From the NCBI RefSeq assembly GCF_041916015.1, contig NZ_JAYSAH010000019.1, positions 353 to 64,352 of the forward strand: a stretch of 64,000 bases of DNA, in the 5' to 3' direction. Shown piece by piece: positions 5,034 to 18,645 of this stretch; the stretch's first letter is position 1; every line of letters starts with the position of its first letter. Origin of the DNA: Sphingopyxis sp. GTDB lineage: Bacteria; Pseudomonadota; Alphaproteobacteria; Sphingomonadales; Sphingomonadaceae. A model generated the notes under the pieces. The model searched no databases. It was not told where the DNA came from and worked only from the letters and a program-made list of their open reading frames with translations. Both the position numbers and the translations under genes were made by a program.

Positions 5034-6140
5034 TCAATGAAAGCGGCGGGTGCCGGTTTTACTGTCGTTTTCGACCGCCAGGATGATACCGACACAGGTC
5101 ATGATCGTCAGCATCGACGAGCCGCCATAGGAAAAGAGCGGCAGCGGGATACCGACCACCGGCGCCATGCCCATCACCATCGACAGGTTGATCGCGATGT
5201 AGAAGAAGATCGTCATCGTGAGGCCGGCCGCAGTGAGCTGACCGAAGCGGGTACGGGCGCGGAGCGCGACGCGCGTGCCCCAGCGGATCAGCAGGAAGAA
5301 GGCGAAGAGCAGGCCGAGCCCGCCGATCAGCCCCCATTCCTCGGCCATCGTTGCGAAGATGAAATCGGTGTGGCCCTCGGGCAGATAGTCGAGGTGGCTC
5401 TGCGACCCGTTGAGGAAGCCTTTGCCGCCGATCCCGCCCGATCCGATCGCGATCTTCGACTGGCTGATATGATAGCCGGCGCCGAGCGGATCGCTTTCGG
5501 GATCGAGGAAGATCAGCACGCGCTTCTGCTGATAGTCGTGGAGCATCGAGAAGAGTACCGGCAACGCCGCGGCGCCCGCGGCGCCGGCGCTGCCGAACCA
5601 CCAGAAGGGCAGGCCGGCGACAAACATCACCACCACGCCGCCGATGCAGATCGCGAGCGCGGTGCCGAGGTCGGGCTGGAGCATGACGAGCGCGGCGGGA
5701 ACGCCGATCGCCGCGAGCGCGGGCCAGAGCGCGGTGAAGGTACGCGTGTTGCCCGGCGGCAGCTGCGCGTAGAAGCGTGCAAGCGCAAGGACGATCGCGA
5801 CCTTCATCAGTTCTGACGGCTGAAGGTTCATGAAACCGAGGTTGAGCCATCGCTGGCTGCCGCCGCCGACGAACCCCAGCAATTCCACCGCGACGAGCAA
5901 CAGCAGCACGCCGAGATAGCCGAGATAGGAGAAGTCCTCGAATATCCGGAGCGGCATGCGGCTGATGCCCAGCATGATGGCGAGGAAGACGAGGAAACGC
6001 ACGCCCTGCTGCCATGCCCAGGGCGACCAGCTGCCGCCCGCCGCCGAATAGAGGACGAGGAGATCGAAGACGACGATCGAGCTCAGCAGCGCGATCAGCT
6101 TCCACGGGATGCGCTGGATGGCGGGCGGAACGGGGATCAT
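5034..6140 (-). CDS. rodA: Rod shape-determining SEDS protein RodA
   Basis: GGSQRWLNLGFMNLQPSELMK, QPDLGTA, SKIAIGSGG, LPEGHTDFIF, PLPLFSYGGSS; ATG 6140 overlaps the mrdA stop (ATGA). Confidence 0.95.
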   Translation of the reverse strand: MIPVPPAIQRIPWKLIALLSSIVVFDLLVLYSAAGGSWSPWAWQQGVRFLVFLAIMLGISRMPLRIFEDFSYLGYLGVLLLLVAVELLGFVGGGSQRWLNLGFMNLQPSELMKVAIVLALARFYAQLPPGNTRTFTALWPALAAIGVPAALVMLQPDLGTALAICIGGVVVMFVAGLPFWWFGSAGAAGAAALPVLFSMLHDYQQKRVLIFLDPESDPLGAGYHISQSKIAIGSGGIGGKGFLNGSQSHLDYLPEGHTDFIFATMAEEWGLIGGLGLLFAFFLLIRWGTRVALRARTRFGQLTAAGLTMTIFFYIAINLSMVMGMAPVVGIPLPLFSYGGSSMLTIMTCVGIILAVENDSKTGTRRFH

Positions 6141-8044
6141 TGCGCGAGCCCCGGATCGGGCGCTGCAATGCCGGCCTTCCACGCGGCATAGCTGCGGTCC
6201 ATGCGATCCTTGATCGTGCCGCCCCAGCCGGCCTCGAAGGTTTCGAGCGCCTCCATCCCCTTTTCGCGATCGTAGATGAAAGTGAAGATGTCCTTCGCGA
6301 CCGGCGCGGCGGCGCGGCTGCCGCCCATGCCGTGCTCGATGATGACCGATATGGCGTAGCGGGGATCGTCGACGGGCGCGAAGCCGATGAACAGGCCGTG
6401 GTCGCGAAATTTCCACGTCCCGCCCTTGCCGTTGCCGGTGTTGAGCCCGCGCACCTGCGCGGTGCCGGTCTTGCCCGCCATCGTAATCCCGTCGAGCGGC
6501 AGGCGGCTGCGCCCGGCGGTCCCTCCCGGCCCGTTGACCACGAGGTCCATGCCCAGCCGCGCGGTGGCGAGCGCCTCGGCGGAGAAGGGGAGGGGATCGT
6601 TCTTGAAGTGCCGGTTGACGAGGCGCGGATAGAGGCTGCGGCCCGAGGCGATGCGCGAGGCCATGACCGCGAGCTGGAGCGGATTCACGCTGACATAGCC
6701 TTGGCCGATCACGGCGTTCAGCGAATCCGACGCCGACCAGGGTTGGTGGTATTTCTTCATCTTCCACGCGCTGTCGGGGATCGTCCCGAACCGCTGGTTG
6801 CTGCCCGCAAGCTGGAATTCCTCGCCGAGCCCCATCAGGCGTGCGGTCGGTGCGATCGCGTCATAGCCCAGCCGGTCGGCAACCCAGTAGAAATAGCTGT
6901 TGCAACTCTTCATGATCGCATGCGGCATGTCGAGGCTGCCGTGCGTGCCGAGGCAGCGGAAGAAACGGTTACCGAGGCGGTAGCCGCCGATGCAGGTGTG
7001 GCGCTCGCTGGGATCGATGCCATGGCCGATCGCGGCGATCGCGGCCATCGGCTTCAGCGTCGATCCCGGCGGATAGAGGCCGCGCGTCGCCTTGTTGATC
7101 AGCGGCTGGTGATCGTCGGCGCGCAGCCAGCTATATTCCGAATTGCTGATCCCGTCCGAAAAGCTGTTCGGGTCGAAGCTCGGCATCGAAACGAAGGCGA
7201 GGATGTCGCCGGTCAGCGTGTCGATGACGATCGCCGCGCCGGATTCGGGGCCCATGCGCCGCGCGGCATATTCCTGCAGGTCGGCATCGATCGTCAGATG
7301 GACGGTCTTACCCTGCGTGTCGGGCTGGGTCGACAGTTCGCGCACCACCTTGCCGCGCGCGGTGACTTCGACGCGCTTGGCGCCGGGCTTGCCACGCAGC
7401 ATGGTCTGGAAATATTTCTCGAGCCCGTCCTTGCCGGTCTTGTAGCCGGGTGTGATGTAAAGCGGGTCCTTGACCTTCTCATATTCCTCGGCGGTCGGTG
7501 CGCCGACATAGCCGATCAGATGGCCGACCGCGGCGCCGGTCGGATAGTTGCGTGCAAAGCCGCGCTGCGGCGCGATGCCGGGAAGCTCGGGGAGGTGGAC
7601 GAGGATCGAGCTATATTCCTGCTCGGTCATGTCCTCGGCGACCGCGACCGGCTGAAAGCCCGATGCGGCTTTCAGGTCGCGCTCGATCCGCTCCATCGCG
7701 TCGCCGTCGAGCCGCAGCAGCGTCTTCAATTGCCCGAGCACCAGATCCTTGTTGTGGAGGCGGTCGGGAATGATGTCGACGCGCAGCGAAACGCGGTTGT
7801 TGGCGAGCGCCTTGCCGTGGCGGTCGACGATCCACCCGCGGCGCGGCGGAACGAGCGTCAGATTGACGCGATTGCTTTCCGACTGAAGCACATAGCGTTC
7901 GTTATCGACGACCGAGATATAGGCCATGCGCGCCGCGAGCGCGCCGAACAACGCTGTCTGCGCGCCGCCGACGACGATCGCGCGGCGGGTGAAGGTGATG
8001 CCCCTCCAGGCTTCGGTAATGGGTGGGCTCTTCTTGCCGAACAT
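6137..8044 (-). CDS. mrdA: Penicillin-binding protein 2
   Basis: PPGSTLK (SxxK), SCN (SxN) and GKTGTAQ (KTG) motifs; located in the mre operon. Confidence 0.95.
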   Translation of the reverse strand: MFGKKSPPITEAWRGITFTRRAIVVGGAQTALFGALAARMAYISVVDNERYVLQSESNRVNLTLVPPRRGWIVDRHGKALANNRVSLRVDIIPDRLHNKDLVLGQLKTLLRLDGDAMERIERDLKAASGFQPVAVAEDMTEQEYSSILVHLPELPGIAPQRGFARNYPTGAAVGHLIGYVGAPTAEEYEKVKDPLYITPGYKTGKDGLEKYFQTMLRGKPGAKRVEVTARGKVVRELSTQPDTQGKTVHLTIDADLQEYAARRMGPESGAAIVIDTLTGDILAFVSMPSFDPNSFSDGISNSEYSWLRADDHQPLINKATRGLYPPGSTLKPMAAIAAIGHGIDPSERHTCIGGYRLGNRFFRCLGTHGSLDMPHAIMKSCNSYFYWVADRLGYDAIAPTARLMGLGEEFQLAGSNQRFGTIPDSAWKMKKYHQPWSASDSLNAVIGQGYVSVNPLQLAVMASRIASGRSLYPRLVNRHFKNDPLPFSAEALATARLGMDLVVNGPGGTAGRSRLPLDGITMAGKTGTAQVRGLNTGNGKGGTWKFRDHGLFIGFAPVDDPRYAISVIIEHGMGGSRAAAPVAKDIFTFIYDREKGMEALETFEAGWGGTIKDRMDRSYAAWKAGIAAPDPGLAQ

Positions 8045-15393: not shown

Positions 15394-16317
15394 GTGACCG
15401 AAAGGGCGGAAAAGAAAGTCCTCAGCTTTCAGGACATGATCCTGACGCTGCATGCCTATTGGAGCGCGCGCGGCTGTGCGATTCTTCAGCCTTATGACAT
15501 GCGCGTCGGGGCGGGCACCTTTCACCCCGCGACGACGCTGCGCAGCCTTGGTCCCGAGCCGTGGAACGTCGCCTATGTCCAGCCGAGCCGCCGCCCGACC
15601 GACGGCCGCTATGGTGAGAACCCGAACCGGCTCCAGCATTATTACCAGTATCAAGTGATCCTGAAGCCGTCGCCCGCCGACCTGCAGGAGCAGTATCTGG
15701 GCAGCCTCGCCGCGATCGGCATCGACCCGCTGCTCCACGATATCCGCTTCGTCGAGGACGATTGGGAATCGCCGACGCTCGGCGCGTGGGGCCTGGGCTG
15801 GGAAGTCTGGTGCGACGGGATGGAAGTCACCCAGTTCACTTACTTTCAGCAGATGGGCGGCTTCGACTGCAAGCCCGTCGCGGGCGAGCTCACCTACGGG
15901 CTCGAGCGCCTCGCCATGTATATCCAGAACGTCGACAATGTGTACGACCTGCGCTTTTCCGACGCGGTCGGCGACGTTGCGGCGCTGAGCTATGGCGACG
16001 TGTATCTGGAAAACGAACGGCAATTCTCGAAATGGAATTTCGAGGTTGCCGACACCGACACGCTATTTGCGGGTTTCAAGGCGGCCGAGGCCGAATGCCA
16101 GCGCGCGATCGCGGCGGGCGTGCCGCTCGCGGCCTATGATCAGGCGATCGAGGCGAGCCACCTGTTCAACCTGCTGCAGGCGCGCGGCGTAATCAGTGTG
16201 CAGGAACGCGCCAACTACATGGCGCGCGTCCGCGACCTCGCCAAGGGCAGCTGCAAGGCGTGGATCGACAGCCAGTCCGAAAACTGGACCGCAAAATATC
16301 CGGGGTGGACGCTGTGA
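15394..16317 (+). CDS. glyQ: Glycine--tRNA ligase alpha subunit
   Basis: [46 protein letters not shown]. Confidence 0.98.
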
Positions 16318-18533
16318 CCGACTTTCTTCTCGAACTGCGCAGCGAGGAAATTCCGGCACGGATGCAGGCCGGTGCGCGCGCCGAGCTGGAAAAATTGTTC
16401 CGCGCGCAATTGAGCGCTGCCGGGCTAGAAACGGGCGACCTCACCATCTGGTCGACCCCACGCCGCCTCGCGCTGATCGCCAAGGGTTTGCCCGAAGCGA
16501 CTGCAGCGGTCAGCGAGGAACTCAAGGGCCCGCGCAGCAGCGCGCCGCCGCAGGCACTCGAAGGCTTCCTCCGCAAGACGGGCCTGACTCAGGACCAGCT
16601 CGAAGACCGCGACGGCGTGTACTTCGCCGTGATCGACAAGCCTGGCCGCGCGACCGCCGAGGTGCTCGCCGAGGCGATCCCCGCGATCGTCCGCGGCTTT
16701 TCGTGGCCCAAGTCGATGCGCTGGGGCAAGGCCAGCGCGAGTAGCGAAAGCCTGCGCTGGGTGCGCCCGCTGTCGGGCATCGTCGCGATCTTCGGCGAAG
16801 ACTTGGTTGCGTGTGAAGTTAGCGGGATTTCCGCGGGTTTCGTGACGCGCGGCCACCGCTTTCACTGCCCGGGCGAGATTACGATCGGATCGGCGGCCGA
16901 CTATGCCGAAAAGCTGCGTGCGTGCCACGTCATCGTCGACCATGAGGAGCGGCAGGCGATCGTCCGCGACGGTGCCGCGAAAGCCGCAGCTGACGCCGGG
17001 CTGACGCTCGTCGAGGATGAGGGGCTGGTGATCGAGAATGCCGGACTCACCGAATGGCCGGTGCCCTTGCTCGGCCGCTTCGACGAAGTCTTCCTCGAAG
17101 TGCCGCCCGAGGTCATCCAGCTCACCGCCCGCGTGAACCAGAAATATTTCGTCGTGAACGGCGCCGACGGCAAGCTCGCCAACGGCTTTGTCTGCACCGC
17201 GAACATCGACGCGAAGGACGGCGGCGCGGAGATCGTCGCGGGCAACCGCAAGGTCCTCGCCGCGCGCCTCTCCGATGCGCGCTTTTTCTGGGAACAGGAC
17301 CAGAAGAAGACGCTCGCGCAGCATGCGGAGAAGCTGGCGAACATTACCTTCCACGAAAAGCTTGGCACCGTCGCCGACAAGGTCGAGCGCGTCGCGAAGC
17401 TTGCCGAATGGCTTGCGAGCGAAGGCATCGTCCCGAACTGCGACCCCGCGCTCGCGCGGCAGGCGGCCGAGCTCGCAAAGGCCGACCTCGTCACCGAAAT
17501 GGTCGGCGAATTCCCCGAGCTACAGGGCCTGATGGGCGGTTATTACGCCCGCGCCGAAGGCCTGCCCGATGCCGTCGCCGACGCGATCCGCGACCATTAC
17601 AAGCCGGTCGGGCAGGGCGATGACGTCCCGATCGCGCCGGTGACGGTGGCTGTGGCGCTGGCGGATAAGCTGGATACGGTCGTTTGCTTCTTTGCTATCG
17701 GGGAAAAGCCAACGGGATCGAAAGATCCGTTTGCCCTGCGGCGCGCGGCTCTTGGTATCCTGCGCACGCTAGAAACTTCCGGTCTTTCGTTGGGTATGGT
17801 TGAAGCTATCGAGAAGGCGCATCTGCTGTACATTGAGAGACTTGCGGTCGGCATCAGTTTCTCTGATCTTCCCAAACCAGCTGATGGCAATAAGGGCGGC
17901 TTTTCATTTAGATCATCAGCCGATGCCACGGCCATCTACATTGGCGAAAAATTGGTCGTTACGGTTCCGACGCCCGAGGCAGGCACTTTTAAGCGTTACC
18001 TTGAGGCTAAGCAAAGCCCTGATGTACTCGAGCTACTCAACTTCTTCGCAGACCGCCTCAAAGTTCAGCAACGCGAAGCCGGTGTCCGTCATGACCTGAT
18101 CGACGCAGTTTTCGCGCTCGGGGGCGAAGATGATCTTGTTCGCCTGCTCGACCGCGTGAAGGCGCTGCAGGCGTTCATGGCGACCGAGGACGGCACCAAT
18201 CTGCTCGCGGGCTACAAGCGAGCGGCGAATATCCTGAAGCAGGCGGGCGAGGTGAGCGGTACTGCTGCCGCGGCGGCGCCGACCGACGCCGATGCCGCGT
18301 TGCTCGCCGCGCTCGACACCGCCGAACCCGCGGCCTCCGCCGCCGTCACCGAAGAACGCTTCACCGACGCGATGGCGGCGCTCGCCAGCCTGCGCGCGCC
18401 GATCGACGCCTTTTTCGAGGGCGTGATGGTCAACGATCCCGACGAAGCGGTGCGCGCCTATCGCCTCGGCCTGCTCGCGCGATTTACCGGCGCGGTGCAT
18501 GGCGTCGCGGATTTCTCGAAGATCGAGGGCTGA
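16314..18533 (+). CDS. glyS: Glycine--tRNA ligase beta subunit, with an internal low-GC insertion
   Basis: [46 protein letters not shown]; GTG 16314 overlaps the glyQ stop. Confidence 0.97.
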
Positions 18534-18645
18534 CGCGGGCGTTATGTGCCGCAGCTTATAACGAACGAAGTAATTCTGAATCGACCAAACACGATTGCAT
18601 ACCTACCCAGCCGCAACCTCCTCCCCGGGGCAGCAGGAGCATGAC

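Follow-up and report, generated by a model that had tools for sequence, protein, structure and literature searches.

The window analyzed here is a stretch of 64,000 nucleotides from a Sphingopyxis sp. contig (NZ_JAYSAH010000019.1), and the element of interest is a low-GC segment carried inside glyS, the gene of the beta subunit of the essential glycyl-tRNA synthetase (GlyRS). Comparison with related genes reveals that this fixed site of glyS is occupied by mutually non-homologous alternatives framed by conserved flanks, the arrangement of a replacement cassette. The host gene is a bacterial glyS, with a match to tRNA_synt_2f (PF02092, E=2e-183), a C-terminal DALR_1 domain (E=9e-8, residues 635-725) and glyQ immediately upstream; its best solved relative is the E. 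coli GlyRS beta subunit (7yse_C, E=9e-109). The features of the locus are the following.

15394-16317, plus strand: glyQ, GlyRS alpha subunit, context gene (PF02091 was assigned to the syntenic genes)
16314-18533, plus strand: glyS, GlyRS beta subunit, 739 aa, with a GTG start overlapping the glyQ stop
17640-17708, plus strand: left edge of the exchanged tract, where the GC content at third codon positions (GC3) begins to fall, conservation is 0.74-0.81 and the synonymous divergence (dS) from the closest backbone relative jumps to 1.9
17667-17708, plus strand: end of helix H18, which differs between alleles
17709-17744, plus strand: left motif of 12 residues containing KDPFALRR, forming a loop and the N-terminus of helix H19; amino acids nearly invariant, codons AT-rich
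17745-18041, plus strand: hypervariable region (HVR), 99 codons, 51.5% GC, conservation about 0.2 against 0.9-1.0 elsewhere
17847-18029, plus strand: the actual insertion, 61 residues ending in SPDVL, with no counterpart in E. coli GlyS and no Pfam match
18042-18062, plus strand: right anchor FFADRLK, whose R is the equivalent of E. coli R531; alternative alleles rejoin at 18042-18051
up to 18110, plus strand: conserved flank after FFADRLK, with GC3 still lowered in this genome
18207-18479, plus strand: DALR-type anticodon-binding domain, downstream of the HVR and separate from it, predicted as confident helices
from 18595, plus strand: ppdK, downstream of glyS

The interval 17761-18060 contains 154 G or C among 300 positions (0.513) against 0.70 at 17401-17460, as counted in an initial annotation made from the DNA letters alone, and it is the 300-bp stretch of lowest GC in the 64 kb (mean 0.649, standard deviation 0.044, 0.06% of such stretches being equally low). 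GC3 drops from about 0.85 to about 0.5 over roughly 17640-18110, a range that includes the conserved-flank codons and thereby bears out the remark that atypical codons reach into the flanks. This dip is the sole intragenic one in the window, the other low-GC patches being intergenic or upstream parts of stop-to-stop open reading frames (ORFs). An apparent second dip at 5037-6860 was rejected as out-of-frame sequence upstream of a gene whose product is RodA/FtsW-like, by resemblance only and with no family search run. Numbered from the GTG at 16314, 90 residues (L486-L575) lie between a 16-residue left flank and NFFADRLK, in agreement with the initial annotation; E. coli GlyS has 32 residues there, close to the 35-40 given in the initial annotation. 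The HMMER alignment to 7yse_C is broken between query residues 514 and 576, which leaves 61 residues (17847-18029) without E. coli counterpart. In the glyS patch, no internal promoter, terminator or structured RNA was found above shuffle expectation, and there was no Rfam match. A 112-aa antisense ORF (minus strand, 17597-17935) overlaps the patch; it was set aside as a gene, the sense frame being under strong purifying selection, with a ratio of nonsynonymous to synonymous divergence (dN/dS) of 0.03.

Allelic diversity and exchange of the glyS segment

The diversity of the segment was investigated in the 120 closest GlyS proteins (665-797 aa), whose source names, where given, are nearly all Sphingopyxis, the HVR being delimited between KDPFALRR and FFADRL. 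Outside this region the 120 proteins are 88-99.8% identical, with a median of 94%. Conservation per alignment column stays at 0.9-1.0 along GlyS, reaches 0.95-1.0 in the flanks around the HVR and collapses to about 0.2 at residues ~455-578. The HVRs are 24-118 residues long and fall into 66 classes without detectable mutual similarity. They are unrelated in 196 of the 239 pairs of proteins whose flanks are at least 97% identical; the class is shared by 3% of the pairs at 92-98% flank identity, by 39% at 98-99% and by 94% at 99% or more, and it is independent of flank identity across the range 92-98%. The backbone of the window protein is 97% identical to those of P0003, P0004, P0006 and P0007, all of which carry other HVRs; the single other carrier of its own HVR, P0002 (locus L081, also Sphingopyxis), has a backbone only 92% identical. 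The swappable hypervariable module at a fixed site that had been proposed from the single sequence is thus borne out by the number of classes and by their failure to track backbone identity.

The alignment suggested in the initial annotation was extended across Sphingomonadales and beyond, and unrelated inserts of variable length do occupy the same site. In 78 alphaproteobacterial loci (Sphingomonadales, Rhodobacterales, Caulobacterales, Hyphomicrobiales and relatives) it holds 24-134 residues, and 108 HVR classes of at least 60 residues were counted in the sequences sampled. Between classes, no DNA similarity was detected in any frame or on either strand, even at a backbone dS of 0-0.5; a relationship of the alleles by frameshift or inversion was rejected in the absence of cross-frame and opposite-strand matches. 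Sphingopyxis, Novosphingobium, Sphingobium and Sphingosinicella also have minimal alleles of 24-25 residues, whose GC3 is normal. Related HVR classes can be found across genera and even orders (L011/L025, L014/P0120, L027/P0011, L058/L065), the HVR being always less similar than the backbone. In E. coli, the equivalent 601 bp are collinear in all 5,426 complete genomes examined. The E. coli glyS region (L090:1400-2000) is only 90-95% identical in 170 genomes and 86% in one, which suggests that this species may also hold some imported glyS alleles. A search of the full text of open-access papers and bioRxiv preprints only, hence weak evidence, returned no description of the region. The swappable HVR of glyS is apparently undescribed, and it is unusual for a housekeeping enzyme.

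An exchange of alleles can be observed directly in L087 and L088, which lie on contigs from two separate sequencing runs whose accession numbers are close together. Their DNA is 100% identical over 4.2 kb, a stretch that takes in the genes upstream, glyQ and the initial 1.2 kb of glyS; over the last 200 bp ahead of the HVR, identity drops to 0.96 and 0.78. The HVRs of the two loci (90 and 43 residues) share no homology. On the downstream side, identity is 0.85-0.95 over the rest of glyS (the next 1.5 kb at least), ppdK is mosaic, and a 153-aa ORF is found in one contig and absent from the other. The HVR was therefore replaced within a homologous-recombination tract whose left end lies just upstream of it. 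Where alignment is possible, the import matches the recipient at 0.85-0.95 identity, which fits a congeneric donor. The alpha subunit does not co-vary with the HVR, glyQ being 100% identical in L087 and L088 in spite of their different modules.

Activated-sludge data locate the junctions more closely. Contigs from other strains of the same community part from the window sequence at 17677/17678 and join it again at 18042-18051, and read depth is 17-29 in the HVR against mostly ~50-90 in the flanks; the contig breaks and depth drops are located exactly at the HVR. Several alleles are thus present among the co-resident populations of one sludge community. Both incongruence between cassette and backbone and recombination breakpoints are observed, and exchange by homologous recombination through the conserved flanks, anticipated in the initial annotation, is supported by the L087/L088 breakpoint as well as by the sludge contigs. 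The mean GC3 deficit over 74 genes delimits the same unit: it amounts to -0.21 in the HVR, -0.22 in the ten codons of the left motif and -0.12 in the ten codons before, is about zero further upstream and vanishes at FFADRL. The left motif travels with the cassette, as its amino acids are nearly invariant and its codons nevertheless AT-rich. Because the deficit covers this motif and ends at FFADRL, the exchanged unit extends from the end of helix H18 (~17678) to FFADRL (18042) and includes its own copy of the tRNA-reading loop.

Two further observations concern the surroundings of this unit. The 36 residues encoded at 18042-18149 are almost invariant across Sphingomonadales genera in which GlyS is otherwise 55-70% identical; codon identity is not elevated there, which points to constraint at the protein level rather than recent exchange. 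A second, rarer variable spot lies in the HD domain at 17265-17500 (GlyS residues ~331-400), where L081 shows a nonsynonymous divergence (dN) of 0.24, a dS of 1.4 and an insertion at 17463. At the same spot, one contig of the sludge run X1 joins 17401 to 17471, omitting 69 bases.

Structure, selection and composition of the modules

An AlphaFold2 model of residues 440-742, built on a deeper alignment, reached a mean predicted local distance difference test (pLDDT) score of 88.8, with 66-78 in the insert, where only two sequences inform the alignment; an earlier full-length model on a shallow alignment (pLDDT 54) was unusable. In this model the HVR begins with the remainder of H19 and continues with a second helix (17796-17846) equivalent to an E. 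coli helix; after a loop come a three-stranded beta sheet (17901-17966) and, last, a short helix (17985-18011). The module is predicted to project from the far end of H19, in the half of the HD domain that resembles ATL and Mid1. Foldseek searches with the same model recovered just GlyRS and ArgRS-type anticodon-binding domains. The composition of the HVR is that of a globular protein, enriched in S, Q, Y, M, I and F and depleted in A, G, P and V. Taken with the model, these features suggest a folded and putatively functional surface appendage.

The position of this appendage in the enzyme can be specified from published structures. In E. coli, the loop and the N-terminus of H19 read acceptor-stem base pairs 1-4 and U73 through contacts with G473, D474, D476, R481 and R482, and R531 contacts the tRNA backbone (PMC9908026). 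The corresponding motifs KDPFALRR and FFADRL bracket the HVR and are nearly invariant in the 120 Sphingopyxis-type and 78 alphaproteobacterial sequences. According to the limits of the HD domain (PMC8464048), whose C-terminal half has been renamed the ATL domain and is homologous to AlaRS Mid1 (bioRxiv 10.1101/2023.05.29.542759), the HVR is located in this C-terminal half, between two acceptor-stem contact elements. The initial annotation had placed it next to the anticodon-binding region. It does lie just N-terminal to the anticodon-binding domain, but it belongs to the HD domain and not to that domain (PMC9908026, PMC8464048). The module is probably dispensable for aminoacylation, because alleles of 24-25 residues exist in relatives and E. 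coli has only 32 residues at this site.

Within a class, the modules are nevertheless constrained. The dN/dS of the HVR in four class pairs is 0.03, 0.07, 0.20 and 0.20, the value for the window and L081 being 0.03, against 0.08-0.12 in the backbone; within the class, the module is thus under purifying selection and does not drift. Divergence of the HVR and of the backbone is decoupled. The respective dS values are about equal in L084/L085 (0.35 and 0.43), L091/L092 (0.54 and 0.33) and L093/L094 (0.44 and 0.48), but the window and L081 differ by a dS of 2.3 in the HVR against 0.57 in the backbone, and in L001/L086, where the backbone dS is 0.43-0.52, the HVR has a proportion of synonymous differences (pS) of 0.81 and a dN of 0.29, its boundaries being sharp. 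In two of five class pairs, the allele lineages thus predate the backbone, most of the contrasts being between species. In several inter-genus class pairs, the dN of the HVR is 1.5-3 times that of the backbone.

Low GC3 is a recurrent trait of these modules as well. Of 73 glyS genes from Alphaproteobacteria, 61 have a lower GC3 in the insert than in the rest of the gene, the mean difference being 0.19, and in class pairs both members keep an HVR GC3 of 0.49-0.63 against 0.81-0.87 in the backbone. Host-like GC3 is found in the clade-fixed modules of Phenylobacterium (L062-L064) and in the common minimal allele. From these comparisons, low GC is a property of the polymorphic modules and not the mark of a recent foreign donor. 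The description of the segment as foreign-looking was misleading in this respect, as the trait is shared and persistent and the sole exchange seen directly is consistent with a congeneric donor. Expression does not change along the gene, so that translational selection cannot account for the two GC3 levels. Heterologous alleles would be unable to form heteroduplex DNA and would thus escape GC-biased gene conversion, which may be the cause of their persistently low GC3.

Competing explanations

The explanation that we favor, and hold to be reasonably probable, regards the low-GC stretch as an allele of a hypervariable replacement cassette, in frame within glyS and kept diverse by selection, likely exerted by a GlyRS-binding antagonist. 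The cassette (~17678-18042) carries its own acceptor-stem-reading loop followed by the variable module, and homologous recombination moves each allele as a whole, the breakpoints falling inside the conserved flanks or outside them. Modules of one class stay AT-rich and under purifying selection, and in several class pairs the module has diverged further than the backbone on either side. The many old alleles would persist because selection favors being different. The antagonist would be a phage protein or an interbacterial toxin that recognizes the surface of the module. A T4 factor that modifies E. coli ValRS, mentioned in PMC8076793 after Muller & Marchin 1977, provides a precedent for a phage protein binding a host aminoacyl-tRNA synthetase. 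A bolder and distinctly tentative version can be envisaged, in which GlyRS would present throughout Alphaproteobacteria a polymorphic surface comparable to the major histocompatibility complex, with dozens to hundreds of ancient, constrained modules beside the acceptor-stem reader, maintained by negative frequency-dependent selection from docking phage or toxin proteins; the locus would at the same time constitute an intragenic experiment on the loss of GC-biased gene conversion.

Several points weigh against the favored explanation. The antagonist is the leading guess and, as a driver, pure inference. Most pairs of different classes are probably different species (backbone dS 0.3-0.6), which leaves within-population balancing selection hypothetical, near-identical or co-resident backgrounds being limited to L087/L088 and the sludge reads. 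The L087/L088 tract is at least 2 kb long and could be an ordinary interspecies import that merely carries a different HVR. The HVR is more similar than its flanks in just one class pair, P0081/P0089 (0.94 against 0.92; as DNA, L084/L085, nucleotide identity is 0.92 in the HVR against 0.88), and never in comparisons with genome loci of other genera. Across the order, codons of the right flank are identical no more often than those in other parts of glyS, and homogenization of the flanks by cross-order exchange was rejected on this account; old allele lineages can be discerned from the alignments, with no proof of recent transfer between genera. The purifying selection might stem from nothing more than the penalty that misfolding carries in an essential enzyme. 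The escape from GC-biased gene conversion is a proposal only, and one class, L020/L041, has a GC3 of 0.54 in one species and 0.96 in the other.

The main rival holds that the appendage is constrained and its diversity unselected: ancient modules would be fixed in species and moved by ordinary interspecies recombination, heterologous alleles being unable to homogenize. Such a scheme accommodates the sharing of classes, nearly constant at 99% flank identity or more and random below 98%, as well as the long and ordinary-looking L087/L088 tract and clades that inherit a GC-ameliorated module vertically, such as Phenylobacterium. We consider it unlikely, since it explains neither the origin of more than 100 unrelated and individually constrained modules at one site of an enzyme nor the persistence of allele lineages older than the backbone, and since several alleles coexist among the co-resident populations of one sludge community.

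A neutral, indel-prone surface loop, functionally irrelevant and drifting fast, is less plausible still and in our opinion improbable. The within-class dN/dS of 0.03-0.20 is similar to that of the enzyme core, residual DNA similarity between classes is lacking even at a backbone dS of 0-0.5, the boundaries of divergence are sharp, the composition is globular and not of low complexity, and AlphaFold2 predicts ordered secondary structure. A loop of this kind would agree with the tolerance of the site for 24-134 residues, including minimal alleles, with the elevated dN of the HVR in several inter-genus pairs, and with the failure to find a known domain in the module. On this last point, Pfam returned no family at E<=1 for the 92-aa insert segment (17760-18035) and none at E<=0.01 for the 99-aa HVR or for 39 other HVR classes, and PADLOC produced for 40 long classes a single marginal match (E=0.005), which is the chance level. 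A decoy or sensor domain of known type, also envisaged in the initial annotation, is therefore not supported.

A one-off horizontal import, by which this genome alone would have received an un-ameliorated piece of glyS from a low-GC donor, is already largely refuted and can be given very little credit. It is true that the GC3 dip extends into the conserved flanks, as an imported tract would look, and that, in the left flank, dS rises abruptly to 1.9 when the closest backbone relative is compared. The same low GC3 is however found in 61 of the 73 glyS genes from Alphaproteobacteria, and four class pairs retain it in both members after a dS of 0.35 to more than 2. The sole other carrier of the HVR is another Sphingopyxis, the exchange seen directly is consistent with a congeneric donor, and no low-GC taxon, phage or plasmid with the sequence was found among the collections searched. 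Phage and plasmid collections and IMG/VR, searched with tblastn and blastn, gave ordinary glyS genes or nothing, and two metagenome scans for the HVR class of the window found none. Protein searches with short queries (the insert alone, or with its flanks) returned nothing or short fragments; they also missed P0001 and P0002 and are uninformative on other carriers. A HMMER search of 1.84 billion cluster representatives produced no credible relative, its two weak matches being both repetitive proteins. P0241 is a low-complexity repeat protein, and its match was judged spurious. P0242 (565 aa, no Pfam match) contains a repeated unit, VSVYVGERLVGFVP..AG.FSAY, that resembles the beta-sheet part of the module (window 17901-18011); its unannotated beta-hairpin repeats are 32-42% identical over 26-41 residues in several repeats, a weak lead that could reflect remote relationship or chance.

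A small selfish in-frame element, such as a Rickettsia palindromic element, a miniature inverted-repeat transposable element (MITE) or a mini-intein, or else programmed diversification by a diversity-generating retroelement (DGR) or by silent-cassette conversion, is highly improbable. The in-frame insertion in an essential gene and the repeat-like insertion of L081 at a different glyS site would fit such an origin. The HVR is however present as a single copy, with no second copy or silent cassette in the 64 kb; it is devoid of terminal inverted or direct repeats, and its RNA folds no better than shuffled sequences (z = +0.7), with no palindromic folding of the type expected for palindromic elements or MITEs. 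The selfish element suggested in the initial annotation is accordingly not supported. Inteins contain a Hint splicing domain, a nucleophile at the N-terminal and +1 positions and a terminal HN motif, and are usually of at least 130 aa. Here, Pfam detects no intein or endonuclease domain, and the segment starts with AALG and ends with ELLN followed by F. Targeted mutagenesis is contradicted by alleles that are non-homologous instead of point-diversified and by the low dN/dS (0.03-0.20); reverse transcriptase was not specifically searched beyond the repeat scan.

Finally, an assembly chimera or mis-binning, for which the sludge origin of this metagenome-assembled genome (MAG), with its several co-occurring Sphingopyxis strains and its drop in read depth across the HVR, might have pleaded, can practically be dismissed, since the reading frame is intact, the same architecture exists in complete isolate genomes (CP009122, CP039250 and CP013342 for example), and Logan unitigs from two independent activated-sludge studies (run X1, 17564-17880 and 17851-18621; run X2, 17648-18413) span both junctions with 0 differences. 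Since these exact unitigs come from independent studies, the low-GC patch is not an assembly artefact, which settles the read-coverage doubt raised in the initial annotation.

Related systems and neighboring variable elements

The HVR of glyS is an allelic replacement cassette of the type known from the HsdS target recognition domains (TRDs) or from replacement islands, new in being located inside an essential synthetase. In Type I restriction-modification systems, the TRDs of HsdS are unrelated, often AT-richer modules that lie between conserved segments, are swapped by homologous recombination and exist as many alleles per genus. The glyS modules share with them the lack of relatedness, the AT-richness and the exchange as units between conserved parts. 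HsdS, however, is not essential, and its modules are known to act in DNA specificity, whereas glyS encodes an essential cytoplasmic enzyme of translation. Replacement flexible genomic islands, such as O-antigen and glycosylation clusters, likewise combine a fixed locus, non-homologous alternatives, depressed GC and homologous recombination, and their diversity is attributed to phage pressure (PMC4033161). The first three of these traits and the flank-mediated exchange are found again in the glyS cassette, but the islands are multi-gene, kilobase-scale and encode exposed structures, while the cassette measures 0.07-0.4 kb and is part of one reading frame for an intracellular enzyme.

Other likenesses are more limited. 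The insertion domains of aminoacyl-tRNA synthetases (Ins1-3 of human GlyRS) and the sequence insertions of RNA polymerase are, like the glyS module, in-frame surface insertions near functional elements of essential enzymes; they are homologous and lineage-fixed, whereas glyS modules are unrelated between close strains. The pneumococcal pbp mosaics are interspecies-recombination tracts of elevated divergence in an essential gene, with breakpoints in conserved sequence, and glyS similarly contains diverged recombination tracts; the pbp blocks are however ~80% identical and antibiotic-selected, and the core of the glyS block has no homology between alleles. Rickettsia palindromic elements add extra in-frame peptides to housekeeping proteins that retain their function, as the HVR adds an extra in-frame segment, but they are multi-copy, palindromic and mutually related, where the HVR is single-copy, non-palindromic and different in each class.

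These comparisons have consequences for the use of glyS. Aminoacyl-tRNA synthetases are treated as slow, vertical markers, and GlyS contains, beside its acceptor-stem reader, a sharply bounded segment with more than 100 unrelated recombining alleles. In Sphingomonadales, Rhodobacterales, Caulobacterales and Hyphomicrobiales, phylogenies of glyS, average nucleotide or amino acid identities and the binning or assembly of MAGs are expected to be disturbed at the HVR. Should the diversity be driven by an antagonist, bacteria and phages or toxins would be in conflict over GlyRS, a battleground so far unrecognized, and the HVR would give a handle for finding the attacker. If there is none, the locus would offer a clean test of why high-GC genomes keep a high GC3, two stable GC3 regimes in one gene at one expression level arguing against translational selection.

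The neighborhood of glyS is itself variable. A DUF559 ORF of ~150 aa (Vsr-like endonuclease fold) occurs sporadically between glyQ and glyS, in L081 (L081:3546-4001) and in L045, L046, L033, L064 and L075 from distant alphaproteobacteria; it is absent from the window, in which glyQ and glyS overlap, while the gap between them measures 430-580 bp in about 16 of 72 loci. This pattern of presence and absence resembles that of a free-standing selfish endonuclease gene. The glyS of L081 has a second in-frame insertion in the anticodon-binding domain (L081:6020-6148, equivalent to window ~18242-18261), of which ~130 bp repeat the 3' tail of the DUF559 ORF (L081:3858-3998), and P0104 has a similar 'PAFAGATE'-like insertion at the same site. 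The L081 insertion looks like a GC-rich in-frame repeat element reminiscent of Rickettsia palindromic elements. Between glyS and ppdK, an ORF of 153-156 aa with an N-terminal hydrophobic stretch (a possible membrane segment) and no Pfam match is present in L081 (L081:6413-6883), L001, L002, L003, L022, L085, L087, L089 and L091 and absent from the window (18534-18594), L082, L084, L086 and L088, and its presence is uncorrelated with the HVR class. In the L081 metagenome contig, ppdK (L081:6970-9629) is called as two ORFs of 619 and 266 aa, owing to a frameshift or a sequencing error.

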